In this document: positions 11,605 through 27,596 of the stretch, one piece after another
Layout of the letters: each line of letters begins with the position of its first letter
How positions within the stretch are numbered: the stretch's first letter is position 1
Assembly (NCBI GenBank): GCA_035764875.1
Contig: DASTYO010000154.1
Coordinates: forward strand, 1,503-33,502
Source of the DNA: Acidimicrobiales bacterium
Lineage (GTDB): Bacteria > Actinomycetota > Acidimicrobiia > Acidimicrobiales > Salinilacustritrichaceae
DNA length: 32,000 nucleotides
Direction of reading: 5' to 3'
Made by a program: the position numbers and the translations under genes
The notes under the pieces: generated by a model
Told to the model about the DNA's origin: nothing
Database searches by the model: none
Seen by the model: only the letters and a program-made list of their open reading frames with translations

Positions 11605-11648
11605 CCGGTCGGTACCGGGCTGGGCGCTGGCATGCTGGACGGCTGCCC

Positions 11649-14600
11649 ATGGCCCCCGAGACCGCCACGCCCACCGCCACCGACCTGCGCGCCCGCCTCG
11701 ACGAGGCGAGCATCGCCGACGCGCACCGCCTGGGGCGGCGGCTGCGCGGGCTGAAGCGCAAGAAGGGCGAGGCACGGGAGCGGGCGCTGCGCGACATCGC
11801 AGCGCAGCTCGAACGGTCGATCGCGTCCGTGGCGGCGAAGCGCGCGTCGGCGGTCGCCCCGACGTACCCCGACGAGCTGCCCATCACCGCACGCCACGAC
11901 GAGCTGCTCGAGGTGCTGCGCGACAACCAGGTCGTCATCGTCGCCGGCGAGACCGGCTCGGGGAAGAGCACGCAGCTGCCCAAGCTGTGCCTCGAGCTCG
12001 GGCGCGGCGTGCGTGGGCTCGTCGGCCACACCCAGCCCCGGCGGATCGCCGCCCGCTCGGTCGCCGAGCGCGTGGCCGAGGAGCTCGGCGTCGAGGTCGG
12101 CGGGCAGGTCGGCTACGCCGTCCGGTTCACCGACCAGGTGGGCGACGACACCCGCCTCAAGGTGATGACCGACGGCATCCTGCTCAACGAGCTCCAGCGC
12201 GATCGCCTGCTGCTCGCCTACGACACGATCATCGTCGACGAGGCCCACGAGCGGAGCCTGAACATCGACTTCATCCTCGGCTACCTCAAGGAGCTGCTGC
12301 CGCGCCGGCCGGACCTCAAGGTCGTCGTCACGTCGGCCACCATCGACACCGAGCGCTTCGCCGAGCACTTCGCCGACGAGTCGGGCCCCGCGCCCATCGT
12401 GGAGGTGTCGGGTCGCACCTACCCGGTGGAGATGCGGTACCGGCCCGACGCCGACACCGGCGACCCGCCGGACGACACGGTGCAGGCCGTGGCCGACGCC
12501 GTGCAGGAGCTGGTGCGGGAGGGCCCCGGCGACGTGCTCGTCTTCGCATCGGGCGAGCGCGAGATCCGCGACATGGCCGACGCGGTCGAGGGGCTCCGGC
12601 TCCCCGGCACCGAGGTGCTCCCGCTGTTCGCCCGCCTCTCCTCGGCCGAGCAGCACCGGGTGTTCGCCCGCCACGGCAACCGCCGCATCGTCATCGCCAC
12701 GAACATCGCCGAGACGTCGATCACCGTGCCCGGCATCCGGTACGTCGTCGATCCCGGCACCGCCCGCATCTCCCGCTACAGCAAGCGCACGAAGGTCCAG
12801 CGCCTGCCCATCGAGCCGGTGTCCCAGGCCAGCGCCGACCAGCGGGCCGGGCGCTGCGGCCGCGTCGCGCCCGGCATCTGCATCCGCCTCTACTCGCAGG
12901 AGCACTACGACGCCCGGCCCGAGTTCACCGAGCCCGAGATCCTGCGCACAAACCTCGCTTCGGTCATCCTGCAGATGACCGCCATCGGCCTCGGCGACGT
13001 CGAGTCGTTCCCGTTCGTCGAGCCGCCCGACCGGCGCAACGTCGCCGATGGCGTGACCCTGCTGGAGGAGCTCGGCGCCCTCGAGCTCGACCGGCCCGCG
13101 GACGACCGGCGCCTCACCGAGCTGGGCCGCCGCCTCGCCCGCCTCCCGCTCGACCCGAGTCTCGGTCGCATGGTGCTGGAGGCCGAGCGCAACCGGTGCG
13201 TCCACGAGGTGATGGTCATCGTGGCCGGCCTGTCGATCCAGGACCCGCGGGAGCGACCCACGGGGCAGGAGGAGCGGGCCGGCCAGCTCCACGCCCGCTT
13301 CCGGGTGCCGGGCTCGGACTTCCTGGGCTACCTCGCGCTGTGGGACCACGTGAAGGAGCGCCAGCGGGAGCTGTCGTCGTCGCGGTTCCGCCGCGAGTGC
13401 CGGGACGAGCACCTCCACTTCGTGCGCCTGCGCGAGTGGCAGGACGTGTACACCCAGATCCGCCAGGTGGTGCGCAGCCTGGGCATCGCCATCGACCGCC
13501 AGCCCGCCGAGGCCGACGCCATCCACCGGGCGCTGCTGTCGGGGCTGCTCGCCAACGTCGGGGCGCGGGACGACGACGGCGGTCCCGGCGACGGGGACGG
13601 CCGGCGGCGGGACGCCCGATCGCGCGGGCCGGTCGAGTACGTGGGGCCGCGCAGCGCCCGCTTCGCGCTCGCTCGCGGCTCGGTGCTGGCCAAGAGCCCG
13701 CCCCGCTGGGTGATGGTGGCCGAGATCGTGGAGACCAACCGCCTGTGGGCCCGCACCGCGGCCACGGTCCAGCCGGCCTGGATCGAGCAGGCGGCGGCGC
13801 ACCTCGTCACCCGCACCTACGACGCGCCCCACTGGAACCCCGACCGGGGTGCGGCCCAGGTGGTCGAGCGGGTCCGGCTGCGGGCGCTCACCATCGTCGA
13901 GGGCCGGACCATCAACCTCGACCGGGTCGACCGCCGCCTCGCCCGCGAGCTCCTGATCCGGCACGCGCTCGTGCGCGGCGAGTGGGACACCCACCACGCG
14001 TTCGTCGAGCGCAACGCGGAGCGGGTCGCCGAGGTGCGGGCCATGGAGGACCGGGCCCGCCGGCGCGACATCCTCGTCGACGAGGACGTGGTGCACGACT
14101 TCTTCGACGCCCGCGTCCCGGACGACGTCACCGACGTGCGGCGGTTCGACCGGTGGTGGCGCGACGCCCAGCAGGACGATCCGCACCTGCTCGACCTGTC
14201 GGTCGCCGACCTGGTCGAGGACGAGGCCGCCGACCTGGACGAGCATGCGTTCCCCGAGCGGCTGGAGGCACCCCTCGATCGCGGCGCCACCGCCGAGATC
14301 CGCCTCGACTACGACTTCGACCCCGGCCGCGAGTCCGACGGCGTCACCTTCGAGATCCCGGTGGCCGTCCTCAACCGCACCGATCCCGAGCCGTTCGAGT
14401 GGCTGGTCCCCGGGCTGCGGGCGGAGCTGGTCGCCGCCCACGTCAAGGCGCTGCCGAAGCCGATCCGCCGGGCGCTCGTGCCGGCCCCCGACCGGGCCGC
14501 CGAGGTCGTGGCCCGGGTGGGTCCCGACGACGGGCCGCTGCGGGCGGTGCTGGCCGCCGAGCTGAGCCGCATGGCCGGCGTGCCGGTCACCGCCGACATG

Positions 14601-15611
14601 TGGGACGGACTGGTGCTCCCGCGCCACCTGCGCCCTCGGTACCGGGTGGTGGAGGAGGGCCGCACGCTCGCCGAGGGCGACGACCTGCAGGCGCTCGCGC
14701 GCCGGCTGCGCGCCCACGTGCGCGCCACGGTCGTGTCGCAGGCGCCCGAGCTCGAGCGCGACGGCCTCACGTCGTGGTCGTTCGGGACGCTGCCCCGGGT
14801 GGTCGAGACCACGCTCGACGGCCTGCCGGTGCAGGGCTACCCGGCCGTCATCGACACCGACGACTCGGTCGGCGTGCGCATCCTCGCCTCGGTCGAGCAG
14901 CAGCGAGCGCTGCACTGGAACGGCGTGCGTCGCCTCCTCGCCCTGCAGCTCGGCCGGCCGGCCCGGCAGCTGCAGCAGCGGATCGACTCCCGGGTGCTGC
15001 TCGGCCTGACGAGCGCGCCGCACGGCACGGTGACCGGCGCCGTCGACGACGCGCTCCACGGAGTGCTCGACGCCCTGCTGCTCGCCGCCGGCGGCCCGCC
15101 CTTCGACCAGGCCGGGTTCGAGGCGCTGCTGCGCACCGTGCGAGGCCGCTGGCTCGACGACCTCGTGGGGGTGGTGACCACGCTGTCCGAGGTCGTGCAG
15201 CATGCGGCCCGCATCCGGGACCGCCTGGCCCAGCCGGCGCCCGCGTCGTGGTCGGCCTCGCTCGACGACGTCACCGACCAGGTCGCCCGGCTCGTGTTCG
15301 ACGGCATGGTGGTCAGCATCGGCACCGACCGCCTCGCCCACCTGCCCCGCTACCTCGACGCCGTCGACGTCCGGCTCGACAAGCTCCGGGAGAGCCCGGC
15401 CAAGGACGTCGAGCGGATGCGCACCATCCAGCGGCTGGAGGGCGCCCACGCCGAGCTCGTCGCCGTCCACGGCCTCACCGCTGCCCTCGACGACGTGCGC
15501 TGGCTCATCGAGGAGCTGCGCGTGCAGCTGTTCGCCCAGCAGCTCGGCACGGCGGTCTCGGTGAGCGACCGGCGCATCATGGAGCGCCTCCACAAGATCC
15601 GCCGCCCCTGA
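11649..15611 (+). CDS. hrpA: ATP-dependent RNA helicase HrpA (DEAH-box)
   Basis: GETGSGKSTQLP (motif I), DEAHERS (motif II), SATID, TNIAETSITV, QRAGRCGR, and a long HrpA-type C-terminal region. ~1320 aa from ATG 11649 (MAPETATPTATDLRARLDE). Confidence 0.95.
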   Translation: MAPETATPTATDLRARLDEASIADAHRLGRRLRGLKRKKGEARERALRDIAAQLERSIASVAAKRASAVAPTYPDELPITARHDELLEVLRDNQVVIVAGETGSGKSTQLPKLCLELGRGVRGLVGHTQPRRIAARSVAERVAEELGVEVGGQVGYAVRFTDQVGDDTRLKVMTDGILLNELQRDRLLLAYDTIIVDEAHERSLNIDFILGYLKELLPRRPDLKVVVTSATIDTERFAEHFADESGPAPIVEVSGRTYPVEMRYRPDADTGDPPDDTVQAVADAVQELVREGPGDVLVFASGEREIRDMADAVEGLRLPGTEVLPLFARLSSAEQHRVFARHGNRRIVIATNIAETSITVPGIRYVVDPGTARISRYSKRTKVQRLPIEPVSQASADQRAGRCGRVAPGICIRLYSQEHYDARPEFTEPEILRTNLASVILQMTAIGLGDVESFPFVEPPDRRNVADGVTLLEELGALELDRPADDRRLTELGRRLARLPLDPSLGRMVLEAERNRCVHEVMVIVAGLSIQDPRERPTGQEERAGQLHARFRVPGSDFLGYLALWDHVKERQRELSSSRFRRECRDEHLHFVRLREWQDVYTQIRQVVRSLGIAIDRQPAEADAIHRALLSGLLANVGARDDDGGPGDGDGRRRDARSRGPVEYVGPRSARFALARGSVLAKSPPRWVMVAEIVETNRLWARTAATVQPAWIEQAAAHLVTRTYDAPHWNPDRGAAQVVERVRLRALTIVEGRTINLDRVDRRLARELLIRHALVRGEWDTHHAFVERNAERVAEVRAMEDRARRRDILVDEDVVHDFFDARVPDDVTDVRRFDRWWRDAQQDDPHLLDLSVADLVEDEAADLDEHAFPERLEAPLDRGATAEIRLDYDFDPGRESDGVTFEIPVAVLNRTDPEPFEWLVPGLRAELVAAHVKALPKPIRRALVPAPDRAAEVVARVGPDDGPLRAVLAAELSRMAGVPVTADMWDGLVLPRHLRPRYRVVEEGRTLAEGDDLQALARRLRAHVRATVVSQAPELERDGLTSWSFGTLPRVVETTLDGLPVQGYPAVIDTDDSVGVRILASVEQQRALHWNGVRRLLALQLGRPARQLQQRIDSRVLLGLTSAPHGTVTGAVDDALHGVLDALLLAAGGPPFDQAGFEALLRTVRGRWLDDLVGVVTTLSEVVQHAARIRDRLAQPAPASWSASLDDVTDQVARLVFDGMVVSIGTDRLAHLPRYLDAVDVRLDKLRESPAKDVERMRTIQRLEGAHAELVAVHGLTAALDDVRWLIEELRVQLFAQQLGTAVSVSDRRIMERLHKIRRP

Positions 15612-15632
15612 GGGCGCCGGCTCGGTGCGGCG

Positions 15633-16805
15633 GTGTCCGGTCTGTCACGCTTGGGGGCGATGATCGATCTCACGGTCGCGTCGATCCCCGTGTACTTCGC
15701 CACCATGGGCGCCGAGTACCGCTACCTGAAGGCGCGTGCGGGCGAGCAGGGCCCGAGCCCGGCCGACTACACCGAGAAGGACACGGCCACGTCGCTGGCC
15801 ATGGGCGTGGGCTCGCTCATCGCCCCGCTGGTGCTGCCCCGCCTCGTGCGCGACGTCGTGCCCGGCAAGGGCAAGCACGGCAAGGCGCTCATCGGCGTGG
15901 CCGCCGCCGCGGCGGTGGCCGCCACCGTGGCCGACCGGGTCGCCGAAGGCGCGCCGGCCGACGCCGACTGCACGCCGGCCGCCGACCGGCGACGCCGACG
16001 GGCGCGCCTCGCCGACCGGGTGCGACGGATCGCCGGCCCGGTGGCCGTGGGCGCCGGGACGCTCGCCGCCAGCACCACCTTCGCCACCCGGACGAACCCC
16101 GAGGTCCAGTGGCGGCGGAAGGGGCACGAGCGCGACCGCGGCACCGGGCCGCTGGCGTGGGCGGCAGCCATCGCCGGCTGGGACTTCATCTACTACTGGA
16201 ACCACCGGTTCATGCACGAGGTGCGTGGCCTGTGGGCCATCCACGTCGTGCACCACTCGAGCGAGCGCTACAACCTCTCCACCGCGCTGCGCCAGCCGGT
16301 GGCCGACATCCTCGGCGTGTGGGTGCCCTACGGCGTGCTCGCCCGGGCCGGCATCCGCCCGCACCTCGTCACCCAGGCCCGCGCCGTCAACCTGCTGTAC
16401 CAGTACTGGATCCACACCGAGGTGATCCGCTCGCTCGGCCCCGCCGAGGAGGTGCTGAACACGCCGTCGCACCATCGGGTCCACCACGGCTCGCAGCGCC
16501 AGTACCTCGACCGCAACCACGGCTCCATCCTCATCGTGTGGGACCGCCTGTTCGGCACGTTCGAGCGCGAGGGCGAGCGGGTGGTCTACGGCCTCACCCG
16601 CAACATCGAGACGTTCAACCCGGTGAAGGTGGCCACGCACGAGTACCGCGACATCGTGCGCGACATCGCCGGGTCCACCACGTGGCGCGACCGGTTGTCG
16701 TTCGTCCTCCGCGGCCCGGGTTGGGCCTACGAGCGCCACCACCAGCTCGCCGCCGCGGGCGAGCCCATCGTCGACGACCCCGACGACGCCGTCACCGCCG
16801 CCTGA
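15633..16805 (+). CDS. fatty acid hydroxylase / sterol desaturase superfamily membrane protein
   Basis: Three His boxes: HRFMHE, HVVHHSSE, HHRVHHGS. It carries an Ala/Arg-rich low-complexity insert before the catalytic region. The start could be GTG 15633 or ATG 15660. Confidence 0.85.
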   Translation: MSGLSRLGAMIDLTVASIPVYFATMGAEYRYLKARAGEQGPSPADYTEKDTATSLAMGVGSLIAPLVLPRLVRDVVPGKGKHGKALIGVAAAAAVAATVADRVAEGAPADADCTPAADRRRRRARLADRVRRIAGPVAVGAGTLAASTTFATRTNPEVQWRRKGHERDRGTGPLAWAAAIAGWDFIYYWNHRFMHEVRGLWAIHVVHHSSERYNLSTALRQPVADILGVWVPYGVLARAGIRPHLVTQARAVNLLYQYWIHTEVIRSLGPAEEVLNTPSHHRVHHGSQRQYLDRNHGSILIVWDRLFGTFEREGERVVYGLTRNIETFNPVKVATHEYRDIVRDIAGSTTWRDRLSFVLRGPGWAYERHHQLAAAGEPIVDDPDDAVTAA

Positions 16806-16814
16806 CCAGCGGTC

Positions 16815-17057
16815 CTACCAACGCAGCTCGATCTCGATCTCGCTGCCCTCCTCGCCGACCTCGACCTCGAGGGAGAACGTCAGCTGCGACGGCACCTTCA
16901 CCGTCGTCTTCAGCCCGTTCAGGTCCACGGAGATCTCGTTGTGGCGGGCCAGCTGGTCGGCCAGGTCGCGGAGCCGCTGCGCCGCCTCCTCGCGGGACAG
17001 CGTCTCTTCGTGCTCGTGCTCGATCAGGTCCTCGGCCATGCCGCGAGCATGCCCCAT
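16815..17057 (-). CDS. amphi-Trp domain protein
   Basis: ETLSREEAAQRLRDLADQLARHNEISVDLNGLKTTVKVPSQLTFSLEVEVGEEGSEIEIELRW shows the acidic beta-rich pattern ending in E-L-x-W that is typical of small amphi-Trp proteins. The start may instead be ATG 17039. Confidence 0.7.
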   Translation of the reverse strand: MGHARGMAEDLIEHEHEETLSREEAAQRLRDLADQLARHNEISVDLNGLKTTVKVPSQLTFSLEVEVGEEGSEIEIELRW

Positions 17058-17069
17058 GCGGCACCGGGG

Positions 17070-18065
17070 TCACAGACCGGCCTCGGTCAGCGCCGCCTCC
17101 GTGCTCGCCCGCCCCAGCGCGATGAGCTCCGGCGCCCGGTGGAACTCGAACATGCGGGCGCTGGCCTTGGGGATCTCGACGAGGACGTCGGGCGGGTAGC
17201 CGGCGAGCTTGTACGAGGTGAGGGTCGCCTGCATGACCTCGTAGGCCATGTTCACGATCTCCAGGCGACCGACGTCGGCCACGTCGACGCCGGGGGCGGG
17301 CGCCGCGGGCGTGGTGCGGTCGGCGCGGGCGAGCATGGCCCGCACCGCCTCCCAGTCGAAGAACCGGGCGGCCCGCCGGCGCAGCGTCACCGGGTCGGTG
17401 GTCGACGGGGGCCCGTCGACGGCCGGGCCCGGCTCGTCGAGCACCGGGGCGGTCACCGGACCGGACGCGCGGGTGGGGGAGTGGCGGCGGACCTCACCGG
17501 AGAGGCTCACGGCGATGGTGATGTCGGCGTGGGCGGGCAGCGTCGGCAGGATGGGCACCGGGTTCATGAGGGCGCCGTCGACGAGCAGCTGATCGCCCGA
17601 GACCACCGGCGTGAAGAGCGACGGGATGGCCACCGAGGCCCGGATGGCATCGGCGAGGCGGCCCTCCTGGAACCACACCTCACGGTGGGAGAGCACGTCG
17701 GTGGCCACCGCGGTGTAGGCGACGGGGAGGTCCTCGATCCGCATGTCGCCCACCATCTCCCGGACGATCGAGAACACCTTCTCGCCGCGGATGGCCCCGC
17801 CGGCCGAGAGGGACAGGTCGACGAGCCGCAGCACGTCGAGCTGGCGCAGGCCGGTGACCCACGCGGTGTACTCGTCGAGGCACCCGGCGGCGTGCACACC
17901 CGCCACCAGCGCGCCCATCGACGAGCCGGCGAGGGCGACGATCTCGAACCCCCGGTCGAGGATCACCTGCAGAGCACCGATGTGCGCGTAGCCCCGGGCA
18001 CCGCCGCTGCCGAGCACCACGGCTGCGGTGCGAGGACGGTCATCGGCCGCGGCCATGCCCTGCAT
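17070..18065 (-). CDS. patatin-like phospholipase
   Basis: Oxyanion GSGGARG, nucleophile elbow GSSMGA (GxSxG), catalytic Asp in DGAL. Confidence 0.9.
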   Translation of the reverse strand: MQGMAAADDRPRTAAVVLGSGGARGYAHIGALQVILDRGFEIVALAGSSMGALVAGVHAAGCLDEYTAWVTGLRQLDVLRLVDLSLSAGGAIRGEKVFSIVREMVGDMRIEDLPVAYTAVATDVLSHREVWFQEGRLADAIRASVAIPSLFTPVVSGDQLLVDGALMNPVPILPTLPAHADITIAVSLSGEVRRHSPTRASGPVTAPVLDEPGPAVDGPPSTTDPVTLRRRAARFFDWEAVRAMLARADRTTPAAPAPGVDVADVGRLEIVNMAYEVMQATLTSYKLAGYPPDVLVEIPKASARMFEFHRAPELIALGRASTEAALTEAGL

Positions 18066-18075
18066 CCTTGCCGAT

Positions 18076-18103
18076 GCGTCCGGTCGGGCGCACCGGGGGA
18101 CGC
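18076..18103. promoter_or_regulatory. imperfect inverted repeat in the 88-bp patatin/hydrogenase divergent region
   Basis: GCGTCCGGT-cgggcgc-ACC(ggg)GGACGC. The outer 6-bp arms are perfect and the inner 3 bp pair after a 3-nt bulge. It ends ~50 nt upstream of the first hydrogenase-operon gene. Confidence 0.2.
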
Positions 18104-18153
18104 ACGGTGACCTAGGGCTCTAGCGCCCGGACCGCCGTCGTTCGGACCATGAG

Positions 18154-19293
18154 GTGGTGGAACGCACGGGAGCGGGAGCACGAGCCGTCATCGATCCGGC
18201 CGGTCTGGATGCGATGCTCCGGCACCTGGCGGCCCGTGGCTACCAGCTGATCGGACCCACCGTGCGCGACGGCGCCATCGTGCACGCCCCGATCGACGGC
18301 ATCGAGGACCTGCCCGCCGGCTGGGGTGATGTGCAGTCCGCCGGCTCGTACCGCCTCCGCCGCCGGGGCGACGGAGCGCTGTTCGGCCACGCCGTCGGTC
18401 CCGAGTCGGCCCGCCGGTTCCTCACCCCGCCGACCCGAACGCTGTGGTCGGCGATCCGCACGCCCGACGGCTTCGAGGTCGAGGTCGAGGTTGCTGCGCA
18501 GCAGCAGCCGCCGGTCGCGCTGATCGGGCTGCGCCCGTGCGACCTCGCCGCGATCGCCGTGCAGGACCGCACCCTGGCCGGACCGCGCCCGGATCCCGCC
18601 TACGTCGAGGCGCGCCGGCGGAGCTTCGTCGTGGCGGTCAGCTGCTCCGACCCCGCGAGCACCTGCTTCTGCACCTCGACGGGCACCGGGCCCACCGTCG
18701 TCGGCGGGCACGACCTCGCGCTCGCGGAGCTGCTCCACCCTCGCCACCGGTTCCTGGTCGACGTCGGGACCGACGCCGGCGCGGACGTCCTCGAGGCGAT
18801 CCCGCACTCGTCGCCGTCGAGCGAGGACCTGGAGGCGGTCGCCGCAGCCGGCGACGCCGCGGTCGCCGCCATCCGTCGGCGGCTGGACCCGCGTGCCCGG
18901 GAGCTCACCGCGGCGATGGAGCACCCGCGCTGGGACGACGTCGCCGCCCGCTGCCTCTCGTGCGGGAGCTGCACGCTCGTCTGCCCGACCTGCTTCTGCA
19001 CCAGCGTCGTCGACACCACGGACCTGGCCGGGGCCCGCGCCGCCCGGGTGCAGCGGTGGGAGTCGTGCTTCGCGCTCGACCACAGCTTCGTGCACGGCGG
19101 CAGCGTGCGCGTCGACGTCCGGTCCCGCTACCGCCAGTGGCTCACGCACAAGCTCGCCACGTGGTGGGAGCAGTTCGGCATCTCGGGCTGCGTCGGCTGC
19201 GGGCGCTGCATCGCCTGGTGCCCGGCCGGCATCGACCTGACCGCCGAGGTGGCGGCCATCGTGCAGGACCACCAGCAGGAGGTGGACGCATGA
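18154..19293 (+). CDS. hyhB: [NiFe]-hydrogenase Group 3b-type beta subunit (AsrA-like 4Fe-4S protein)
   Basis: Cys clusters CSDPASTCFCTSTG, CLSCGSCTLVCPTCFC and CVGCGRCIAWCP. First gene of the overlapped operon. The symbol follows mycobacterial hyh nomenclature by analogy. The start codon (GTG 18154) is uncertain. Confidence 0.85.
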   Translation: MVERTGAGARAVIDPAGLDAMLRHLAARGYQLIGPTVRDGAIVHAPIDGIEDLPAGWGDVQSAGSYRLRRRGDGALFGHAVGPESARRFLTPPTRTLWSAIRTPDGFEVEVEVAAQQQPPVALIGLRPCDLAAIAVQDRTLAGPRPDPAYVEARRRSFVVAVSCSDPASTCFCTSTGTGPTVVGGHDLALAELLHPRHRFLVDVGTDAGADVLEAIPHSSPSSEDLEAVAAAGDAAVAAIRRRLDPRARELTAAMEHPRWDDVAARCLSCGSCTLVCPTCFCTSVVDTTDLAGARAARVQRWESCFALDHSFVHGGSVRVDVRSRYRQWLTHKLATWWEQFGISGCVGCGRCIAWCPAGIDLTAEVAAIVQDHQQEVDA

Positions 19294-19772
19294 GCACCAC
19301 GACCATCCGCGACCTCCTCGCCGACCACCGGTTCTTCGCGGGGCTGCCGGCCGCGGACCTCGACCTCATCGCGGGGTGCGGGGTGAACGTCGCGTTCCGC
19401 GCGGGTGCGATGGTGGCTCGGGAGGGCGACCCCGCCGACCGGTTCTTCGTCGTGCGCGAGGGTCATGGCGCCATCGAGGTCCACGCGCCCGGCCGGGGAG
19501 CGCTCGTGGTGGCGACCGCCGGTCCCGGTGACGTCATCGGCTGGTCGTGGCTGTTCCCGCCCCACCAGTGGCGCTTCGACGTGCGGGCCGTCACCGACGT
19601 GCGCGCCGTCGCCCTCGACGGCGCGTGCCTGCGCGGCAAGGCCGACGAGGACCCCGCGCTGGGCTACCGGCTCATGGAGCGCTTCGCCCGGATCCTGGTG
19701 TCGCGCCTGGAGTCCACGCGGCTGCAGCTCGCCGACCTGTACGGCACGGGGGAGGCGGCCGGTGTGCCGTGA
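19290..19772 (+). CDS. stand-alone cyclic-nucleotide-binding (CAP effector-like) domain protein, no HTH
   Basis: ATG 19290 overlaps the upstream stop (ATGA), with GGAGG 7 nt upstream. FFAGLPAADLDLIAGCGVNVAFRAGAMVAREGDPADRFFVVREGHGAIEV is the cNMP beta-roll pattern. 160 aa, with no DNA-binding domain. Confidence 0.85.
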   Translation: MSTTTIRDLLADHRFFAGLPAADLDLIAGCGVNVAFRAGAMVAREGDPADRFFVVREGHGAIEVHAPGRGALVVATAGPGDVIGWSWLFPPHQWRFDVRAVTDVRAVALDGACLRGKADEDPALGYRLMERFARILVSRLESTRLQLADLYGTGEAAGVP

Positions 19773-20589
19773 CGACCCGATGGTGCCCGTGCCGTACCGG
19801 GTGGCCGCCCGCCGTCCGGAGACCGGCGACGTGGTGACGCTGGACCTGGTGCCCGCGGCCGCGCCGATCCCCGACCCGGAGCCGGGGCAGTTCACGATGC
19901 TCTACGCGTTCGGCGTCGGCGAGGTGCCCATCTCGGTGAGCGGGCTGCCCGGCGACGAGGGCGTGCTCCGTCACACCATCCGCGCCGTCGGCGCGACCAC
20001 CGCGGCGCTCTCCGGCACCGAGGTCGGGCACCACGTCGGCGTGCGGGGCCCGTTCGGGCGCGGGTGGGACCTGGACGCGACCGACGGTGCCGACGTGGTC
20101 GTCGTTGCCGGCGGCCTTGGGCTCGCTCCGCTGCGTCCGGTCGTGCGGCACCTCGCCGCCGGACCCACAGGGCGGGAGCTCGCGGTGCTCGTCGGCGCAC
20201 GGTCGCCGGACGCCGTGGCGTTCGCCGGTGAGCTGGCGGGCCTGGACCGGCGAGGCGACGTGCAGTCCGCGGTCATCGTCGATGCGGCCTCCCCAGCGTG
20301 GACGGGGCCCGTGGGCGTGGTCACCGATCTGCTCGCACACGTGCAGGTCGACGTGGCGCGTGCCGTCGCCCTGGTGTGCGGTCCGGAGCCGATGATGCGG
20401 TTCGCGGCCCGGGCGCTCGAGGCGATGGGCGTGGGCCCCGAGCGCATCCAGGTGTCGCTGGAGCGCAGCATGCACTGCGGGTTGGGCCGGTGCGGCCACT
20501 GCCTGCTCGGGCCACGGTTCGTGTGCCGGGACGGGCCGGTGTTCCGCTGGAGCGACGCCGCTCCCCTCCTGGGGGTGCGAGGGCGGTGA
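19762..20589 (+). CDS. hyhG: [NiFe]-hydrogenase Group 3b-type gamma subunit (AsrB/PyrK-like FAD/NAD(P)-binding, 2Fe-2S)
   Basis: GTG 19762 has GGAGG 6 nt upstream and overlaps the cNMP-gene stop; ATG 19780 is the alternative. Ferredoxin-reductase-type FAD/NAD blocks ([21 protein letters not shown]) and the C-terminal CGLGRCGHC...C 2Fe-2S motif. Confidence 0.85.
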
Positions 20590-21371
20590 GCGCCACCAAG
20601 CCGCGCCTCGCCGTGTGGAAGTTCGCGTCCTGCGACGGATGCCAGCTGACCCTGCTCGACTGCGAGGACGAGCTCCTCGACGTCGCCGGCGAGCTCGACA
20701 TCGCCTACTTCCCCGAGGCGACCCGCGCCGTGAAGCGGGGCCCGTACGACCTGTCGCTCGTCGAAGGCTCGATCACGACGGCGGAGGACGTGGTCCGCAT
20801 CCGCGAGGTCCGGTCCGCGTCGCGGCAGCTGGTGACCATCGGCGCGTGCGCGTCCGCGGGCGGCATCCAGGCCCTCCGCGACTTCGCCGACGTCGACGCG
20901 TACCTGGCGATCGTCTACGCGACGCCGTCGTTCATCTCGACCCTGGCGACGTCGACGCCCGTCGCCGCGCACGTCCCGGTCGACTTCGAGCTGCGGGGCT
21001 GCCCCATCGACCGCCACCAGCTCCTCGACGTGATCGCCGCGTTCCTGCACGGCCGGCGACCGGACGTGCCGACCTCCAGCGTGTGCGTCGAGTGCAAGCG
21101 CCGCGGCAACGTCTGCGTCACCGTCGCCCGTGGCACCCCGTGCCTGGGCCCCATCACCCAGGCCGGGTGCGGTGCGCTGTGCCCCGCCTACCACCGAGGG
21201 TGCTACGGGTGCTTCGGTCCGGCCGAGGATCCGAACCCGCCCGCGCTGACCGTCGAGCTGCGCCGGCGCGGCCTCGCAGACCCCGACCTCGTCCGCCTGC
21301 TGCGCACCTTCAACGCCGGCGCCCGGCCGTTCCGGGACGAGAGCGAGCACCTCGCGGAGGCCGGACCATGA
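20586..21371 (+). CDS. hyhS: [NiFe]-hydrogenase small (delta) subunit
   Basis: GTGA overlap with hyhG. Proximal-cluster Cys pattern [17 protein letters not shown], plus C-terminal [11 protein letters not shown]...[24 protein letters not shown]. Confidence 0.9.
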
Positions 21372-22672
21372 CCCACCGCAGCACCGGCAGCCGCACGCTA
21401 CGCGTCGACTCCCTCGCCCGGGTCGAGGGAGAGGGTGCGATGCACGTCGACATCGTCGACGGGCGCGTGCAGGACGTGCAGCTGCGGATCTACGAGCCGC
21501 CCCGCTTCTTCGAGGCGTTCCTGCGGGGCCGCGCCCACACGGAGCCCCCCGACATCACGGCGCGGATCTGCGGCATCTGCCCCGTCGCCTACCAGATGAG
21601 CGCGTGCGCAGCGATCGAGGCAGCCTGCGAGGTCACCGTCGACGGCCCGCTCGCCGACCTCCGTCGCCTCCTCTACTGGGGCGAGTGGATCGAGAGCCAC
21701 GCCCTGCACATCCACCTCCTGCACGCGCCGGACTTCCTCGGCTACGAGGGCGGCATCGAGATGGCACAGGACCACCCGGAGGAGGTCCGCCGCGGCCTCG
21801 CGCTCAAGAAGGCGGGCAACGACCTGGTGGCGCTCGTCGGCGGCCGCCCCATCCACCCGGTGAACGTGCGCGTCGGCGGCTTCCACCGGGTCCCGACCCG
21901 CCGTGAGCTGCGGGCGTTCGCCCCCCGCCTGGAAGCCGCCCTCGAGCAGGCCATCGACGTCGTCCGCTGGGTCAGCCGCTTCGACTGCCCCGGCCCGGAT
22001 GCGGACTGGGAGCTGGTCGCGCTCCGCCACCCGGGTGAGTACGCGGTCACCCGCGGCCGCCTCGTCTCGACCGCCGGCCTCGACATCGGCGCCGACGAGC
22101 TCCTCGACCACATCGCCGAGACCCAGGTGCCGCACTCGACGGCGCTGCACGCCCACCTGCTGGAGCGGGGTGCGTACCTGGTCGGCCCGCTCGCCCGGTT
22201 CGCTCTCAACCACGACGCGCTCGCGGCGCCCGCAGCCCAGGCAGCGGCGGAGGCCGGCCTCGGTCCGGCCACCCGGGACCCCGCCCGCTCGATCGTGGTG
22301 CGCGCCGTGGAGGTCGTCCACGCCTGCGCCGACGCGCTGCGGATCATCGAGTCCTACGACGAACCGGACGCGCCCGCCGTGCCGGTCGAGCCCCGCGCCG
22401 GCGTCGGCTGCGGCTGGACGGAAGCGCCGCGCGGCCTGCTGTGGCACCGGTACCGGCTCGACGCCGACGGCACGATCCTCGAGGCGACGATCATCCCGCC
22501 CACCGCCCAGAACCAGCCGACGATCGAGCACGACCTGCTCCACTTCGTCGAGCACCACGTCGACCTGCCCGACGACGAGCTGCGCCGGGGCGCGGAGCAG
22601 CTGATCCGCGCCTACGACCCGTGCATCTCGTGCGCGACGCACTTCCTCGACCTCACGGTGCGGCGGACATGA
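21368..22672 (+). CDS. hyhL: [NiFe]-hydrogenase large (alpha) subunit, Group 3-type
   Basis: ATGA overlap, with GGAGG 7 nt upstream. RVEGEG, N-terminal Ni-Fe ligands RICGIC (Cys68/Cys71), and C-terminal DPCISCATH followed by a 9-aa tail (FLDLTVRRT) for endopeptidase removal. Confidence 0.95.
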
Positions 22673-23139
22673 GCCCCCGTGCCGTGGTCATCGGCGTCGG
22701 CAACGAGTGGCGCGGCGACGACGGTGCCGGCATCGCCGCGGCGCGGCAGGTCGGTGCCCGGCTCGCCCGGCAGGTCGTCGTCCACGAGCTCGACGGGGAG
22801 CCGGCCCGCCTGCTCGACGCCTGGGACGGCGCCGAGCTGGCCATCGTCATCGACGCCGTGCGCAGCGGCGCACCCGCCGGCAGCGTGCGCCGCATCGACG
22901 CCGCGTCGCTGGAGTCCGCCGGGACAGCGGGGAGCAGCCACGGGGGCGGGATCGGCACGGCCTACCGGCTCGGGCGCGCGCTCGGCCGGCTGCCGCAGCG
23001 GCTGGTGGTCCTCGGCATCGAGGTCGACGAGACCGCCCACGGACGCGTGCTGAGCGCCGCCGCCACCGAGGGCCTGTCGCGCGCGGCGTCCGAGGCCGTG
23101 GCGCTGGTGGAGGTGGTCGGCGCCGAGGGGAGGACGTGA
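22669..23139 (+). CDS. hydrogenase maturation endopeptidase (HoxW/HybD family)
   Basis: ATGA overlap with hyhL. VIGVGNEWRGDDGAG N-terminal motif, plus IDAV Asp and SSHGGG His blocks. Confidence 0.85.
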   Translation: MSPRAVVIGVGNEWRGDDGAGIAAARQVGARLARQVVVHELDGEPARLLDAWDGAELAIVIDAVRSGAPAGSVRRIDAASLESAGTAGSSHGGGIGTAYRLGRALGRLPQRLVVLGIEVDETAHGRVLSAAATEGLSRAASEAVALVEVVGAEGRT

Positions 23140-23384
23140 TGTGCTTCGCGCAGGTCGGCCGCGTCGTCGCCCTGGACGGCGCCGCCGGCGCGATCGTCGA
23201 CGTCGACGGCCGTCGACGACCCGTCTCGCTCGCCGCCCTCGTCCTCGACGGCACGACACCCCGGCCGGGGGACTGGCTGCTCATCCACACCGGCTTCGCG
23301 CTCGACGTGCTCGACCCGGCCGACGCCGCCGACATCGCCGCCCTCGGCCGGGAGATCCGCGCCGCCGGAAGGGAGGACCCATGA
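23139..23384 (+). CDS. hypC: hydrogenase assembly chaperone HypC/HupF family
   Basis: TGATG overlap, with GGGGAGGA upstream. Starts Met-Cys (MCFAQVGRVVAL) and contains PGDWLLIHTGFALDVLD, the HypC hallmark. 81 aa. Confidence 0.85.
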   Translation: MCFAQVGRVVALDGAAGAIVDVDGRRRPVSLAALVLDGTTPRPGDWLLIHTGFALDVLDPADAADIAALGREIRAAGREDP

Positions 23385-24310
23385 CCACCACCACTCCCGC
23401 CACGCGAACGGCCCCCATCGGACTCGGGTTGGCCGGCATGACGGCCTGCATCAGCGGCGTGTCCGTCTTCGTCAACGGCTACGGCGTCCGCCGCTGGTCG
23501 GATGCGACCGCGTACACCACGGCCAAGAACCTGATCGCCGCCCTCGTGCTCGGCTCGGTGCTCGTCGCCGTGGCGGCGACCAGGGCGCGTCCGCCGGCGG
23601 CCGCCACCCGCCGCCCTCGGGCGGCCATGCTCGCCGTCGCCGTCCTCGGTGGCAGCGTCCCGTTCGTGCTGTTCTTCGAGGGCCTGGCGCGGGCGAGCTC
23701 GCCGGACGCCGCCTTCCTGCACAAGACGCTCGTGCTGTGGGTGCCGCTGCTCGCCGTGCCGGCGCTGGGCGAGCGCACCGGAGCGCTGCACGTGGGCGCG
23801 ATCGCGCTCCTGTTCTCCGGTCAAGCCGTGCTCGCCGGTGGGGTGGACGAGATCGGTCGGGGCTCCGGTGAGGCGCTCATCCTCGCAGCCACCCTGCTCT
23901 GGGCGATCGAGACCGTCATCGCCCGCCGCCTCCTGCGCGGCAGCGTGCCGGCGCCCACGTTGGCCGTCGTGCGCATGGGCGGCGGTGTGGTGCTGCTCCT
24001 GGCGTGGGTGGCACTCCGCGGCGACATCGGCATCCTCACGGGTGCAGGGGCCGGGGCATGGGGGTGGGCGGTGCTCACCGGTGGGCTGCTCTCGCTGTAC
24101 GTGCTGGGCTGGTACGCCGCCCTGGCGCGTGCCCAGGCCGTCGACGTCACCTCCGTGCTCGTGATCGGCGCCTTGGTGACGGCGGCGCTCGACAGCGGCG
24201 TCGGTGGGGTCGCGGCACCGACGCCGGTGGCACTCGTGCTCCTCGTCGCCGGTGGGCTGCTCGCAGCGGTCGCCGCGCTCGCGGCACCGGCACGGGCGGA
24301 GGCGGCATGA
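23381..24310 (+). CDS. EamA/DMT-superfamily permease
   Basis: ATGA overlap with hypC, with GGAGG 4 nt upstream. ~10 hydrophobic helices in two halves, consistent with tandem EamA domains. 309 aa. Confidence 0.8.
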   Translation: MTTTTPATRTAPIGLGLAGMTACISGVSVFVNGYGVRRWSDATAYTTAKNLIAALVLGSVLVAVAATRARPPAAATRRPRAAMLAVAVLGGSVPFVLFFEGLARASSPDAAFLHKTLVLWVPLLAVPALGERTGALHVGAIALLFSGQAVLAGGVDEIGRGSGEALILAATLLWAIETVIARRLLRGSVPAPTLAVVRMGGGVVLLLAWVALRGDIGILTGAGAGAWGWAVLTGGLLSLYVLGWYAALARAQAVDVTSVLVIGALVTAALDSGVGGVAAPTPVALVLLVAGGLLAAVAALAAPARAEAA

Positions 24311-25089
24311 GCCGTGGTCCGGAGCCGCCCGTTCCCGGACCGCTGCTGTTCGCGCGCTTCGCCTACCCGCCGAACGAGCTCGGCCTCTGCGGCCCGGACG
24401 CCCACCGCGAGCTCCTCGAACGTGCCGACGCGAGCGTCGAGGACGGCGACCTCCGGCGACTCGCGATGGCGTTCGAGGGCGCGTGGCCCTACCTCGAGCT
24501 GATCGCCCACGAGCACGGCATCGCCGACCCGCTCGACGCGCGCGTCGTCGAGGCGTACTGGATCGGCAACCCCTTCCTCCGGGACGTCGGGATCGGCGCC
24601 GTGGGCGACTCGCTCGAGCAGCGGTTCCGTCGAGCGGTCAGCACGCGCTGGCCGCACCTGGTGGAGCTCGCGCTGGCCGGTGCCCGACCCCACCACAACT
24701 TCCACGTCTTCTGCGTCTACCCGTGGGTGGGGCTGCTCCGCACCGGTGCCACCGACCACGCGCTCCACGTGCTCGAGCGCTGCCGCATCCGCCCGGGGCG
24801 CGTCCTCCAGGTCCAGGGGCCGGAAGCGCTGGTCCGCACGCGCCCGCTCACCTGGGACGGCGCCCGACTCGGCCTCGGCCCGCCGCGCGTCGACCCGGCA
24901 CGGGTCGGCGACGCGGGCTACCACCTCGACCGCCGCATCGCCTGCGGCGACGTGGTCGCCCTCCACTGGGACTGGGCCTGCGCGCGGCTGGACGAGCGGC
25001 AGGCACGCGCGCTGCGAGCCGAGACCGCCCGCCAGCTGGCGTTCGTCAACGCGCTCACCCTGCCTGCCCCGGCGGTGGTGATCGGGTAG
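24307..25089 (+). CDS. uncharacterised protein; C-terminal ~100 aa HypC-like
   Basis: ATGA overlap with the permease gene, with GGAGG 4 nt upstream. High GC3. aa 158-260 (from nt 24778) read RCRIRPGRVLQVQG...CGDVVALHWDWACARLD, paralleling the operon HypC MCFAQVGRVVALDG...PGDWLLIHTGFALDVLD. I do not recognise the N-terminal 157 aa (LCGPD, HHNFHVFCVYPW). Confidence 0.75.
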   Translation: MSRGPEPPVPGPLLFARFAYPPNELGLCGPDAHRELLERADASVEDGDLRRLAMAFEGAWPYLELIAHEHGIADPLDARVVEAYWIGNPFLRDVGIGAVGDSLEQRFRRAVSTRWPHLVELALAGARPHHNFHVFCVYPWVGLLRTGATDHALHVLERCRIRPGRVLQVQGPEALVRTRPLTWDGARLGLGPPRVDPARVGDAGYHLDRRIACGDVVALHWDWACARLDERQARALRAETARQLAFVNALTLPAPAVVIG

Positions 25090-25122
25090 CAGCGATCCCG
25101 CGGTGGCGCGTGCGCGACCCGT

Positions 25123-25578
25123 TCAGGACGCCAGCTTGGCCTTGACCATCGCCGAGACCCGCTTGCCTTCGGCCCGGCCGGCCACCGCCGCCATCACCGC
25201 GTTCATCGCCGGGCCCATCTGCGACGGCTCGGTGAACCCGCCCTTGGCCAGCGCCTCGTCGACCATCGCCTCGAGCTCGTCGTCGCCGAGCTCCTCGGGC
25301 AGGTAGGCCGAGAGCACCGACCGCTCGTCGAGCTCGCGCTGGGCCTGCTCGTCCCGTCCGGCGGCCTGGAACGCCTCGGCGGCCTCGTCCCGGCGCTTCA
25401 CCTGGGTCCGCAGGACCTGCTCGACGTCGGCGTCGGTGAGCTCCTTCGCGGCCTTGCCGGCGACGGCGGCCTCCTTCACGGCGGCGATGGCCATGCGCAG
25501 CGCGGCCACCCTCACCTGGTCACGTGCGCGCATCGCCTCCTTGAGGTCCTGCTGCATCTGCTCGGCGATCCGGCTCAC
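25123..25578 (-). CDS. yqeY: GatB/YqeY domain protein
   Basis: LKEAMRARDQVRVAALRMAIAAVKEA...RRDEAAEAFQAAGRDEQAQRELDE...MGPAMNAVMA is the typical YqeY pattern. 151 aa. Confidence 0.9.
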   Translation of the reverse strand: MSRIAEQMQQDLKEAMRARDQVRVAALRMAIAAVKEAAVAGKAAKELTDADVEQVLRTQVKRRDEAAEAFQAAGRDEQAQRELDERSVLSAYLPEELGDDELEAMVDEALAKGGFTEPSQMGPAMNAVMAAVAGRAEGKRVSAMVKAKLAS

Positions 25579-25680
25579 GTCGGCGTCCTCCTCGTCGGTT
25601 CGACACGAGCCTGCCCCATGGCCGGGGCCGGGGACCGCCTCGGTTCCCGTTCCCGGGGCTCCGGGTGCGCCGGCGCGCCC

Positions 25681-25712
25681 GGCGTCGCCGCGCCGACGCC
25701 TTGTCGTACGAC
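25681..25712. promoter_or_regulatory. hairpin plus perfect 10-bp palindrome upstream of the ECF sigma gene
   Basis: GGCGTCG-ccgcgc-CGACGCC (25681-25700), then GTCGTACGAC (25703-25712, self-complementary). It ends 31 nt before GTG 25744, in the yqeY/sigma divergent region. Confidence 0.25.
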
Positions 25713-25743
25713 CCGGCCCCGTGCACCTTTAGGTGTTGTGAGC

Positions 25744-26235
25744 GTGAAGGCGTCGCGGGACCTCGCAGGCAAGCCGTCGTCACGCGACGCGTTCGAAGAC
25801 TTCGTGGTGGCGTGCGAGCCCACGCTGCGACAGGCGCTGACGGCGATGTTCGGCATCGACGGCGGCCGCGAGGCGGCGGCCGATGCGCTCGGCTACGCCT
25901 GGGAGCACTGGGAACGAATCGCGACGATGGCCAACCCGACCGGCTACCTGTTCGTCGTGGGTCGCAACCGGCACCGTCGGGGATGGCGTGCCCGACGGTC
26001 GAGGCCCGTCTTCGACGTCGGGAGCCAGCCGTCGGAACCCTGGTGCGAACCGGCCCTCGTCGAGCAGCTGGCGCGCCTGTCCGACCGTGAACGGGTCGCG
26101 GTGCTGTTGGTGCACGGTTTCGAGTGGTCCCTGACGGAGGTCGCTGATCTGTTGGGCGTGACCAAGAGCACGGCGCAGACGCACGCCGATCGTGGGATGG
26201 CCAAGCTGCGGGCGGGCCTGGGGGTGGCGACGTGA
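25744..26235 (+). CDS. ECF-type sigma-70 family RNA polymerase sigma factor
   Basis: Region 2-like FEDFVVACEPTLRQAL...NPTGYLFVVGRNRHRR. Region 4 HTH LSDRERVAVLLVHGFEWSLTEVADLLGVTKSTAQTHADRGMAKLR. The start is GTG 25744 (AGGTG 8 nt upstream) or GTG 25738. Confidence 0.85.
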   Translation: MKASRDLAGKPSSRDAFEDFVVACEPTLRQALTAMFGIDGGREAAADALGYAWEHWERIATMANPTGYLFVVGRNRHRRGWRARRSRPVFDVGSQPSEPWCEPALVEQLARLSDRERVAVLLVHGFEWSLTEVADLLGVTKSTAQTHADRGMAKLRAGLGVAT

Positions 26236-27596
26236 CGATCACCGATCAGCTCCGAGAGGTCGCTCGCCGAGCCAACGAGAACCCGATCACGGCCGACGAG
26301 GTCCTGCGCCGGACGTCGCGTGTGGTCGCCGACCAGGCGGAGGCCCGGCTTCGGGATCCGGCCGGACGCCGAGGTCGGGCGTGGCTGGTCGCAGCTGCGG
26401 CGGTGGTCGTCTCGGCAGCGATCGTCGCGTCCGCCCTGGGCTCCGAGACGGATCGCGGCGCCGAGACCGCGACCGTCGCTCCCTCCACCACACGGCCCGA
26501 GGTCGCTCCCGCACGGCTCGCCATCCGACCCGGCTCCATCGCGTTCGCGGCCGATGCGGGCGCTGGACCGTCGCTGACGACCCCGCTGGAGTTCGCGAAG
26601 GTGGAGACCGAGCCGCAGCCCATGGACGTCTACATCACGCGCGAGGGTGAACCGACTCGGCGGTTGACCTCGAGCGAGGCACACGAGCGCTGCCCTGCGT
26701 TCTCCCCCGACGGGCGGTGGCTGGCCTACGTGGCCAGGAGCTCGAGCGGTGCTGCGTCGATCATCGTCCTGGATGTCGCCGGCGCCAGGGTCGCGGACGA
26801 TCCAGCGCTCCGCGTGGACCTCCCGCCGGGTCCGTACGGGGTGAGGAGGGCGATCGGCTCGCCGTGTCCCGAGTGGTCACCCGACAGCAGCCACCTCGCC
26901 TACCTGGCCTACACGATCAACTCCGAGACCATCCCGATCGGCCGGAAGCCGGACCTCGCCGAGCTGCGGGTCACGACGCTCGATGGGCAGGAGCGCGAGC
27001 TCACCGTCGGACGTCCCGCCCGGGGGTCGGCGCCGTTCGCATGGTCAGCGGAGGGCGATGAGATCGCCTACGTGAACGACGACGGCGTGTGGGCGGCCCA
27101 CCTGGACGGGACCCCGCCATCGCTGCTCTGGCGCCCGGCCGAGCTCCCCATGGGCGTGGCGTGGTCGTCGAGCGGCGACCTGGCGGTCACCATGTGGACG
27201 CACGCAGTCCACGTGCTGCGCGCGGGTGGGAGCACCGAGGTGGTGCCCGGGGTGATCCACGAGTACGACGGCGTCGCCGACTGGTCACCGGACGGCTCCC
27301 GGCTCGCCTTCGTGGATGCCGATGGCTCGATCGTCGTGAGCGACCGTGACGGGGACGGCGCGGCGACGCGGATGCGACCACCGAGCGTGGACGACCAGCT
27401 GGTCGACGTCTGGGACGTCGCGTGGAGCCCTGACGGGACGCGTCTGCTCGGCTTGGCGAGGTCCCCCTCGGACGGCTTCACCTTGATCTCGCTGGCGCCC
27501 GACGGTTCCGAGGCGGAGGCGCTCACGCCGTGGACCTGGGGGCTCGACCGGATCAACCTGCGCGACGTCTCGTGGCAACCGGATCACGGCGGCTGA
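26232..27596 (+). CDS. single-pass membrane protein with extracytoplasmic TolB-like (PD40/WD40-like) beta-propeller; candidate anti-sigma/sensor
   Basis: GTGA overlap with the sigma gene. TM helix AWLVAAAAVVVSAAIVASAL at about aa 50-70. Repeated FSPDGRWLAY, WSPDSSHLAY, WSPDGSRLAF and WSPDGTRLL blades. Confidence 0.85.
   Translation: MTITDQLREVARRANENPITADEVLRRTSRVVADQAEARLRDPAGRRGRAWLVAAAAVVVSAAIVASALGSETDRGAETATVAPSTTRPEVAPARLAIRPGSIAFAADAGAGPSLTTPLEFAKVETEPQPMDVYITREGEPTRRLTSSEAHERCPAFSPDGRWLAYVARSSSGAASIIVLDVAGARVADDPALRVDLPPGPYGVRRAIGSPCPEWSPDSSHLAYLAYTINSETIPIGRKPDLAELRVTTLDGQERELTVGRPARGSAPFAWSAEGDEIAYVNDDGVWAAHLDGTPPSLLWRPAELPMGVAWSSSGDLAVTMWTHAVHVLRAGGSTEVVPGVIHEYDGVADWSPDGSRLAFVDADGSIVVSDRDGDGAATRMRPPSVDDQLVDVWDVAWSPDGTRLLGLARSPSDGFTLISLAPDGSEAEALTPWTWGLDRINLRDVSWQPDHGG

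Follow-up and report, generated by a model that had tools for sequence, protein, structure and literature searches.

The genes for DUF6390 proteins keep close company with those for [NiFe] hydrogenases, in several enzyme classes and in more than one phylum. Here we discuss one of them, the 260-residue product of the gene at 24307-25089 (+) in a 32,000-nucleotide stretch of DNA from an Acidimicrobiales bacterium (GenBank assembly GCA_035764875.1, contig DASTYO010000154.1, positions 1,503 to 33,502 of the forward strand; referred to below as the window), where it closes a hydrogenase operon of nine genes. The C-terminal part of the protein, residues 158-260, is very probably homologous to the hydrogenase maturation chaperone HypC, and it follows a helical domain for which no relative was detected outside this family. 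The genomic data suggest, with a probability that we put at about one half, that DUF6390 is a module derived from HypC which binds a metal through Cys and His residues and, as a chaperone or sensor, couples the supply of this metal to the maturation of [NiFe] hydrogenases. It is probably not a second scaffold for the Fe(CN)2CO unit of the active site.

The HypC-like domain and the conserved Cys/His residues

The reading frame at 24307-25089 is a real gene and, as a model had proposed from the letters and open reading frames of the window (the sequence-only reading), it is the last one of its operon. The G+C content at third codon positions (GC3) is 0.93 in a window of 73.7% GC, and the start codon at 24307 shares an ATGA with the TGA of the upstream EamA gene, with a GGAGG a few bases 5′ of it. 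Moreover, the product is a full-length match to Pfam DUF6390 (PF19927; E = 2.2e-90, 302.8 bits against a cut-off of 25), with residues 10-250 of its 260 aligned to positions 4-240 of the 244 in the profile. The protein is therefore not an orphan; it is a catalogued family member with more than 4000 relatives among clusters at 90% identity.

The parallel between residues 158-260 (24778-25089, +) and the operon's own HypC was first noticed by eye. Pairwise BLASTP between the two sequences is not significant on its own (E = 0.21). Profiles were also compared, one of the C-terminal part of 95 diverse DUF6390 members and the other of 73 HypC sequences from related loci; hhalign gives this pair a probability of 92-96% (E = 5.5e-9 to 1e-7), and repeating the comparison on independent sub-alignments gives 95% (E = 3.5e-8). 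The register is the one seen by eye: R158-C159 falls on M1-C2 and GDVVALHWDW on GDWLLIHTGF, and the subsequent helix is aligned too. Hence, Cys159 (24781-24783, +, as had been stated; the codon is TGC) corresponds to HypC Cys2, and His220 to the invariant HypC His (His50 in the HypC alignment). In control comparisons, 100 column-shuffled HypC profiles scored at most 16.7, with probabilities of at most 3.6%, versus 47.4 for the real profile, while a reversed profile gave 0.9% and the N-terminal half of DUF6390 against HypC 0.08%.

Searches against other collections point to the same family. HupF_HypC (PF01455) is the sole further Pfam family matched by residues 158-260 (E = 0.005), with a score of 17.3 bits that lies below the cut-off of 28.5; the full protein has no reported match to it. 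In a hidden Markov model search of all PDB sequences, HypC proteins are the sole matches of the full-length profile (E = 0.09) and the top matches of the C-terminal profile (E = 0.008). The AlphaFold model (predicted local distance difference test score 89, predicted template modelling score 0.89) places strands at 162-228 and a long helix at 230-249, that is, an oligonucleotide/oligosaccharide-binding (OB) barrel followed by a C-terminal helix. The best PDB match of this model in Foldseek is Thermococcus kodakarensis HypC (2z1c_B; E = 1.9e-3, probability 1.0, template modelling score 0.72 on the target), and the next ones are Escherichia coli HypC (2ot2) and generic OB-fold proteins. Collectively, these data leave little doubt about the homology between residues 158-260 and HypC.

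The first 157 residues (24307-24777, +) form an all-helical domain in the model, with helices in the region 11-159. The sequence-only reading could not assign this part, and our searches agree with it: there is no credible Foldseek PDB match (best probability at most 0.14), and in Pfam at E values up to 10 everything apart from DUF6390 is noise (DUF7437, 0.037; RING-H2 finger, 0.21). Nor does hhalign relate the domain to the N-terminal extension of a 236-residue mycobacterial HypC-family protein (0.3%), to which we return below. The conservation over 95 diverse full-length DUF6390 members is nevertheless high at six Cys and His residues, three in each domain: Cys28 (24388-24390; 100%), His130 (24694-24696; 98%), His133 (24703-24705; 93%), Cys159 (98%), which is preceded by a helix at 149-159, His220 (24964-24966; 95%) and Cys225 (24979-24981; 89%), all encoded on the forward strand and all present in the window protein. 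Two of the N-terminal motifs singled out earlier or lying at these residues, LCGPD (with Cys28) and HHNFHVF (with His130 and His133), are thus deeply conserved, while HEHG is not. As a separate observation, the window protein has Pro163 (codon 24793-24795) in C-R-I-R-P-G, where at least 90% of close relatives have Trp (C-R-I-R-W-G).

Because of the homology with HypC, Cys159 and His220 are expected to be neighbours in space. We infer that Cys28, His130, mostly His133, Cys159, His220 and Cys225 meet there as a metal site, and that the metal would be nickel or iron, possibly in an Fe-S cluster. In this model, DUF6390 would be a two-domain cytoplasmic accessory protein whose C-terminal domain descended from the HypC/HupF chaperone fold. 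The unrelated helical domain of about 150 residues would cap the HypC-like domain and add near-invariant Cys and His residues of its own, so that the putative Cys/His site would be built from both domains.

The same residues can be read in other ways. The sequence-only reading saw in Cys159 the basis for a second HypC-type chaperone or scaffold. Such a protein would hold Fe(CN)2CO on this residue, aided by HypD or by the protein's own helical domain, and would pass it on to the large subunit. The HypC homology, with both the Cys2 and the His equivalents kept, agrees with this proposal, given that Cys2 of HypC is an established thiolate ligand of Fe(CN)2CO (PMC11565642). However, the HypC Cys follows the cleaved Met, and models have this terminus insert into HypD and the large subunit (PMC11565642), whereas the DUF6390 Cys is internal and lies behind a helix. 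The Pfam HupF_HypC score below threshold (see above) also speaks against a carrier of the HypC kind. The genomic context, to be discussed below, bears further on this question.

An Fe-S cluster or a redox-active Cys/His site is another option, in which case DUF6390 would sense O2, redox or Fe-S status, or protect maturation, in aerobes. Three conserved Cys, together with one to three conserved His, would suit such a site, and resemble the 3Cys+1His ligation of IscR and mitoNEET-type clusters. On the other hand, the protein has no CxxC-type cluster motif, and no known Fe-S sensor came up as similar to it.

Finally, the invariant polar residues and the conserved D-R-C-R junction between the domains might indicate an enzyme that supplies a cofactor ligand, such as CO, under aerobic conditions, or a pro-protein that is cleaved before Cys159 to free a HypC-like domain with an N-terminal Cys. 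To our knowledge, the CO source in organisms without HypX is an open question. But the searches turned up no enzyme fold or family that resembles DUF6390, nothing points to cleavage, and an enzyme domain is rarely recruited by as many as four families of DNA-binding domain, as DUF6390 is (see below). We therefore regard both variants as highly improbable.

DUF6390 genes among hydrogenase, transporter and regulator genes

DUF6390 is a large family: its relatives fall into 1189 clusters at 50% identity, and a scan of one genome per species found them in at least 597 genomes (597 of 600 candidate stretches). The Pfam entry is without function, and NCBIfam has no family for the window protein. Our literature search found no paper that names DUF6390, and a search of the literature on Mycobacterium smegmatis locus tags and on hypothetical proteins of hydrogenase clusters yielded nothing on it; in the papers on hydrogenase clusters that we consulted, such genes appear only as hypothetical proteins. 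The counts given below rest on the 80 closest species-level loci (49-60% identity), in which gene distances were determined by tblastn. Their hosts are mostly Actinomycetota, with some Chloroflexota and one Dormiibacterota metagenome-assembled genome.

At least one hydrogenase or hyp gene is present in the fetched stretch at 68 of the 80 loci, and in six of the remaining 12 a contig end is close to the DUF6390 gene. About 35 loci carry an operon of the 3b type that is identical to that in the window, with the same gene order. In about 25 others, DUF6390 lies at the edge of group-1h-type clusters, which encode a 597-residue large subunit, NifU-Rieske, DUF5947 and DUF6084 proteins, a protease and HypC. 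(The DUF5947 and DUF6084 genes sit between the NifU-Rieske and protease genes at about 23 loci, as in L021, 13549-14981 (-).) The association extends to other enzyme classes and to Bacillota. On a Mycobacterium intracellulare plasmid with a Huc-like cluster, the order is hucSL ... hypF-hypC-hypC(long)-SIS-hypE-hypC-hypD-DUF6390, where DUF6390 overlaps the end of hypD. On a Sulfobacillus acidophilus plasmid, hypF-hypC-hypD-hypE-tatA is followed by DUF6390 and then by a membrane-bound group-1-like hydrogenase (hydAB). Given the HypC homology and this linkage to hydrogenase genes, the core of the sequence-only reading, a HypC-like domain in a hydrogenase-linked protein, therefore stands.

These arrangements also bear on the proposal of a second Fe(CN)2CO carrier. 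The positions of DUF6390 directly after hypD in Mycobacterium and after hypE-tatA in Sulfobacillus are in its favour. The sequence-only reading had stressed that hypD, hypE and hypF are missing near the window gene. This is true for the 32 kb of the window. None of the three lies within 10 kb in the approximately 35 loci with the window-type operon, so their absence here is typical of the operon type. A canonical HypC, in turn, is encoded within 1.5 kb of DUF6390 in 46 of the 80 loci, often directly upstream, and in the window operon as well. DUF6390 therefore accompanies HypC rather than replacing it, and nothing is missing that a second carrier would have to supply. Moreover, the fusions to a transporter and to four kinds of DNA-binding domain, described below, sit awkwardly with a carrier that is dedicated to the cofactor and agree better with a module that binds or senses metal. 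So while the HypC homology and the retained Cys and His speak for the earlier proposal, the holding of Fe(CN)2CO finds no support in the internal Cys, the accompanying HypC or the fusions, and we consider this role unlikely.

The second recurrent neighbour is a transporter. An importer or transporter gene lies within 300 bp of DUF6390 in 59 of the 80 loci, and these genes are of three unrelated types. The pair of an EamA gene and DUF6390 is found at 35 loci, the window counted. The Arthrobacter-group loci have genes for a Peripla_BP_2 protein, an FecCD protein and an ATPase beside DUF6390; the best solved homologues of the Peripla_BP_2 protein include iron-complex binders and the Ni-binding CeuE of Helicobacter pylori. 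The third type is an Fbp-like ATP-binding cassette (ABC) system with a fused 560-residue permease; among solved structures, its binding protein finds its best homologues in Fe(III)-binding proteins. A fourth type, a Nik-like ABC system of the SBP_bac_5 family, flanks forms of DUF6390 that are fused to a helix-turn-helix (HTH) domain. NikA, too, is among the best solved homologues of the transporters' binding proteins.

Fusion proteins were sought among the 150 best representatives of DUF6390 at 50% identity. An EamA-DUF6390 fusion of 563 residues, found on two independent contigs, adjoins a 3b-like [NiFe] hydrogenase and an Nramp gene (L094, 8001-9692). A GntR-DUF6390 fusion (nine contigs) is encoded at the head of an operon that includes an Fbp-type ABC importer; a [NiFe] hydrogenase lies 8 kb away. 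PadR-DUF6390 fusions form two clusters: one, on eight contigs, is followed by a gene for an SBP_bac_5 protein (NikA is its best match in NCBIfam) and by two permease genes; the other adjoins HypC. An XRE-DUF6390 gene is flanked by two Nik/Opp-type ABC systems, with HypC directly upstream and a hydrogenase cluster beside it. The reverse order is seen in DUF6390-MarR, whose gene overlaps with its start the end of the HypC gene and has SufE in the vicinity. The genes for the HTH fusions are located at 1468-2499 (L083), 1346-2455 (L088), 4413-5516 (L091), 593-1852 (L092) and 385-1527 (L087). The fusion proteins retain Cys28, His130, Cys159, His220 and Cys225. Assembly or gene-calling artefacts were considered as their origin and rejected, as several contigs from different samples carry the GntR fusion (9 contigs), one of the PadR fusions (8) and the EamA fusion (2).

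Four families of DNA-binding domains have independently taken up DUF6390, beside importer operons, which is the mark of a sensor domain that binds an effector, and fusion to the cytoplasmic end of a transporter points to direct physical coupling. The GntR, PadR, XRE and MarR fusions may thus constitute a new family of one-component regulators. Together with the HypC ancestry and the conserved Cys/His set, these features suggest how a metal chaperone or sensor might work. The stand-alone form would act as a cytoplasmic metal acceptor or chaperone and as the partner of the adjacent transporter (EamA in the window) and of HypC. In the window, the EamA-DUF6390 unit would work for the HypC, the protease and the large subunit encoded in the same operon. 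The HTH-fused forms would be metal-sensing one-component regulators of the importer operons. The data show the homology, the conserved residues, the gene neighbourhoods and the fusions; metal binding, the identity of the metal and its hand-over to the Hyp machinery all belong to the inferred part of this scheme.

As for the metal, the hydrogenase context, the NikA-like systems and the Cys/His-rich ligand set favour nickel. NikR and InrS use His3Cys sites. Iron, in turn, is favoured by the HypC ancestry, the Fbp-type systems and the unsettled origin of the cofactor iron (PMC10847431). Either metal is a candidate. In its most specific form, the proposal is that DUF6390 is a previously unrecognised HypC-derived module for metal trafficking and sensing, dedicated to building [NiFe] hydrogenases in aerobic Actinomycetota, Chloroflexota and some Bacillota, that the stand-alone and the transporter-fused proteins hand nickel (or iron) from a dedicated importer to the Hyp machinery, and that the HTH-fused proteins are new metal-responsive regulators of importers; as a whole, this is a tentative suggestion.

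Several points weigh against linking DUF6390 to metal supply. The ABC systems were identified by family-level matches below curated cut-offs, and their substrates (iron, nickel, peptide, phosphonate or polyamine) are therefore uncertain. Transporters of the EamA type, which belong to the drug/metabolite transporter (DMT) group, usually carry organic metabolites and often export them, and no metal-binding motif is obvious in the EamA of the window. As the 80 loci represent the window gene's closest relatives, many related Arthrobacter genomes among them, counts over these loci are phylogenetically non-independent. Furthermore, three loci of Pseudonocardiales (L035, L068 and L074) and a fourth locus (L042) have neither a hydrogenase nor an importer gene within 10 kb. 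In the three former (at about 8660-9930, minus strand), DUF6390 and a cysteine-desulfurase-like gene of the class-V aminotransferases are divergent, and a short-chain dehydrogenase gene adjoins DUF6390.

With regard to the transporters, DUF6390 could instead be a regulatory or substrate-binding subunit for a non-metal solute and a mere passenger in hydrogenase clusters. The importer is often nearer than any hydrogenase gene, the EamA fusion exists and some loci are without hydrogenase genes, all of which would fit. But the partner transporters come from four unrelated families, whereas the hydrogenase/HypC context is constant, and the domain itself is derived from a hydrogenase chaperone; such a role is thus quite improbable.

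The Fe-S or redox sensor introduced above gains from the fusions to DNA-binding domains, which suit a sensor, and from the hosts of the family, for the most part aerobes among the Actinomycetota and Chloroflexota whose hydrogenases are of groups 1h, 2a-like and 3b. At some loci, genes for SufE, NifU-type proteins and class-V aminotransferases lie nearby, and it has been proposed that iron for the NiFe cofactor comes from the Isc system (PMC10847431). The pairing with importers is, however, explained less simply in this way than by a metal sensor, and this point, in addition to the missing cluster motif, leads us to give the Fe-S or redox alternative a low probability.

The operon in the window and its surroundings

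The nine genes of the operon are translationally coupled, with junctions of -4, -1 or +7 nt. The first one encodes an HyhB-like 4Fe-4S subunit (18154-19293, +; Pfam Fer4_22, E = 3e-30). It is followed by a stand-alone cyclic-nucleotide-binding (cNMP) protein of 160 residues (19290-19772, +; cNMP_binding, E = 1.2e-14), an HyhG-like NAD(P)/FAD and 2Fe-2S subunit (19780-20589, +; NAD_binding_1 and DHODB_Fe-S_bind), the HyhS-like small subunit (20586-21371, +; Oxidored_q6, E = 1.2e-22) and the HyhL-like large subunit of 434 residues (21368-22672, +; NiFeSe_Hases, E = 7e-20). Then come a maturation endopeptidase of the HycI type (22669-23139, +; HycI, E = 1.4e-6), the canonical HypC, 81 residues long and beginning with MC (23139-23384, +; HupF_HypC, E = 4.4e-16), and the membrane transporter of the EamA/DMT type (23381-24310, +; EamA, E = 1e-15), which is translationally coupled to DUF6390 and for which NCBIfam has no family. 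The set of subunits matches the mycobacterial Hyh enzyme, which consists of beta, gamma, delta and alpha subunits (PMC2799521), and this composition suggests that the hydrogenase belongs to group 3b.

No hypA, B, D, E or F gene was detectable by tblastn in the 32-kb window (all matches with E > 0.01). Scans of 17800-25700 for sigma-70 promoters and intrinsic terminators gave no match, which is expected and uninformative for actinobacterial DNA of 74% GC. The gene for the cNMP protein sits between those for HyhB and HyhG, with a 4-nt overlap with the former, and occupies the same place in 31 of the 80 related loci. A family representative, P0261, combines the DUF6390 N-terminal domain with HEAT repeats and a cNMP domain. 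The distant member P0262 lies on a contig of 1.6 kb, which offers no gene context.

The operon is bordered by a divergent patatin gene upstream and a convergent YqeY gene downstream. The former encodes a patatin-like phospholipase (17070-18065, -) and is accompanied by a gene for an Amphi-Trp domain protein (16815-17057, -). Further upstream, a 1712-codon open reading frame (ORF) at 11987-17125 (+) has a translation rich in Arg, Pro, Ala and Gly and overlaps both a 1362-codon ORF (11505-15593, -) and the Pfam-supported Amphi-Trp gene; it is probably a high-GC artefact. On the other side of the operon are a gene for a sigma factor of the extracytoplasmic function type (Sigma70_r4_2; 25618-26235, +) and, with its start overlapping this gene by 4 nt, one for a 454-residue protein with PD40/beta-propeller repeats (26232-27596, +). 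The two are possibly a sigma/anti-sigma-like pair with no relation to the hydrogenase operon.

Significance and comparison with known systems

The maturation of [NiFe] hydrogenases is considered to be well mapped, with HypA-F and a protease as its components. Yet the origin of the iron in the Fe(CN)2CO unit remains open (PMC10847431). A further open point is the way in which soil bacteria that live aerobically obtain the metals for high-affinity hydrogenases. If DUF6390 is a metal chaperone or sensor, it would add a new component and a family of regulators to hydrogenase biogenesis in the dominant consumers of atmospheric H2. Under the most specific, tentative form of the proposal, it would be a missing maturation factor for hydrogenases that oxidise atmospheric H2 and, possibly, the long-sought dedicated metal donor. 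The mechanism is proposed from genomic data, and the large and widespread family is a testable candidate for specialists in hydrogenases and metal homeostasis. The novelty is that a domain derived from HypC forms part of a new architecture of two domains, and that it does so in a large family to which no function has been assigned.

Some features of DUF6390 have counterparts in other systems. The HTH-fused members, and only these, would be analogous to one-component regulators of the NikR type in combining a DNA-binding domain with a Cys/His sensory domain near a Nik-type importer and hydrogenase genes. The NikR-type regulators differ, however, in that they have no sequence or fold relationship to DUF6390, and Pfam detects no HTH domain in the window protein, such a domain being present only in some of its relatives.

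A likeness to HypC is probable for CooT as well, a nickel-binding accessory protein of CO dehydrogenase. CooT is a small all-beta protein that is encoded together with a Ni enzyme and binds Ni(II) through Cys2 (PMC6006190). Hence, a beta protein of small size whose Cys is N-terminal can handle nickel rather than iron, which is a precedent for the proposed metal binding by DUF6390. In contrast to DUF6390, CooT has a single domain and its Cys is N-terminal; it is absent from the top 50 Foldseek PDB matches of the DUF6390 model.

Closer to DUF6390 in architecture is the 236-residue protein WP_069954230.1 of the mycobacterial Huc-type cluster, in which the HypC domain is likewise internal and C-terminal (residues 187-235). 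It even shares a cluster with a DUF6390 gene, on the M. intracellulare plasmid mentioned above (L081, 11100-11810), where a gene for an SIS-domain protein follows it. Unlike DUF6390, it passes the HupF_HypC threshold, and its N-terminal domain of about 180 residues is unrelated to that of DUF6390. The architectural novelty claimed by the sequence-only reading has to be tempered, since this HypC-family protein is a precedent for an internal HypC domain; the two-domain architecture of DUF6390 is new.

The nearest comparison is with HypC, HybG and HupF (PF01455) themselves. In both groups, an OB barrel is followed by a helix, a Cys stands at the start of strand 1 and a His is present in the strand that carries H-x-G-F in HypC; DUF6390 His220 meets the invariant His that comes after the P-G-D-W motif. 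DUF6390, like HypC, is encoded in [NiFe]-hydrogenase clusters. The differences concern the position of the Cys, which comes right after the initiator Met in HypC and at 159, behind a 157-residue helical domain, in DUF6390; an insertion of approximately 15-20 residues in the DUF6390 barrel; the motif, HxGFA in HypC and HWDWxC in DUF6390; and the size, as HypC is a single domain of about 70-110 residues while DUF6390 has 260 residues and two domains. By score threshold, Cys position and size, DUF6390 thus lies outside the HypC/HupF family as it is defined, and its resemblance to this family is one of descent.

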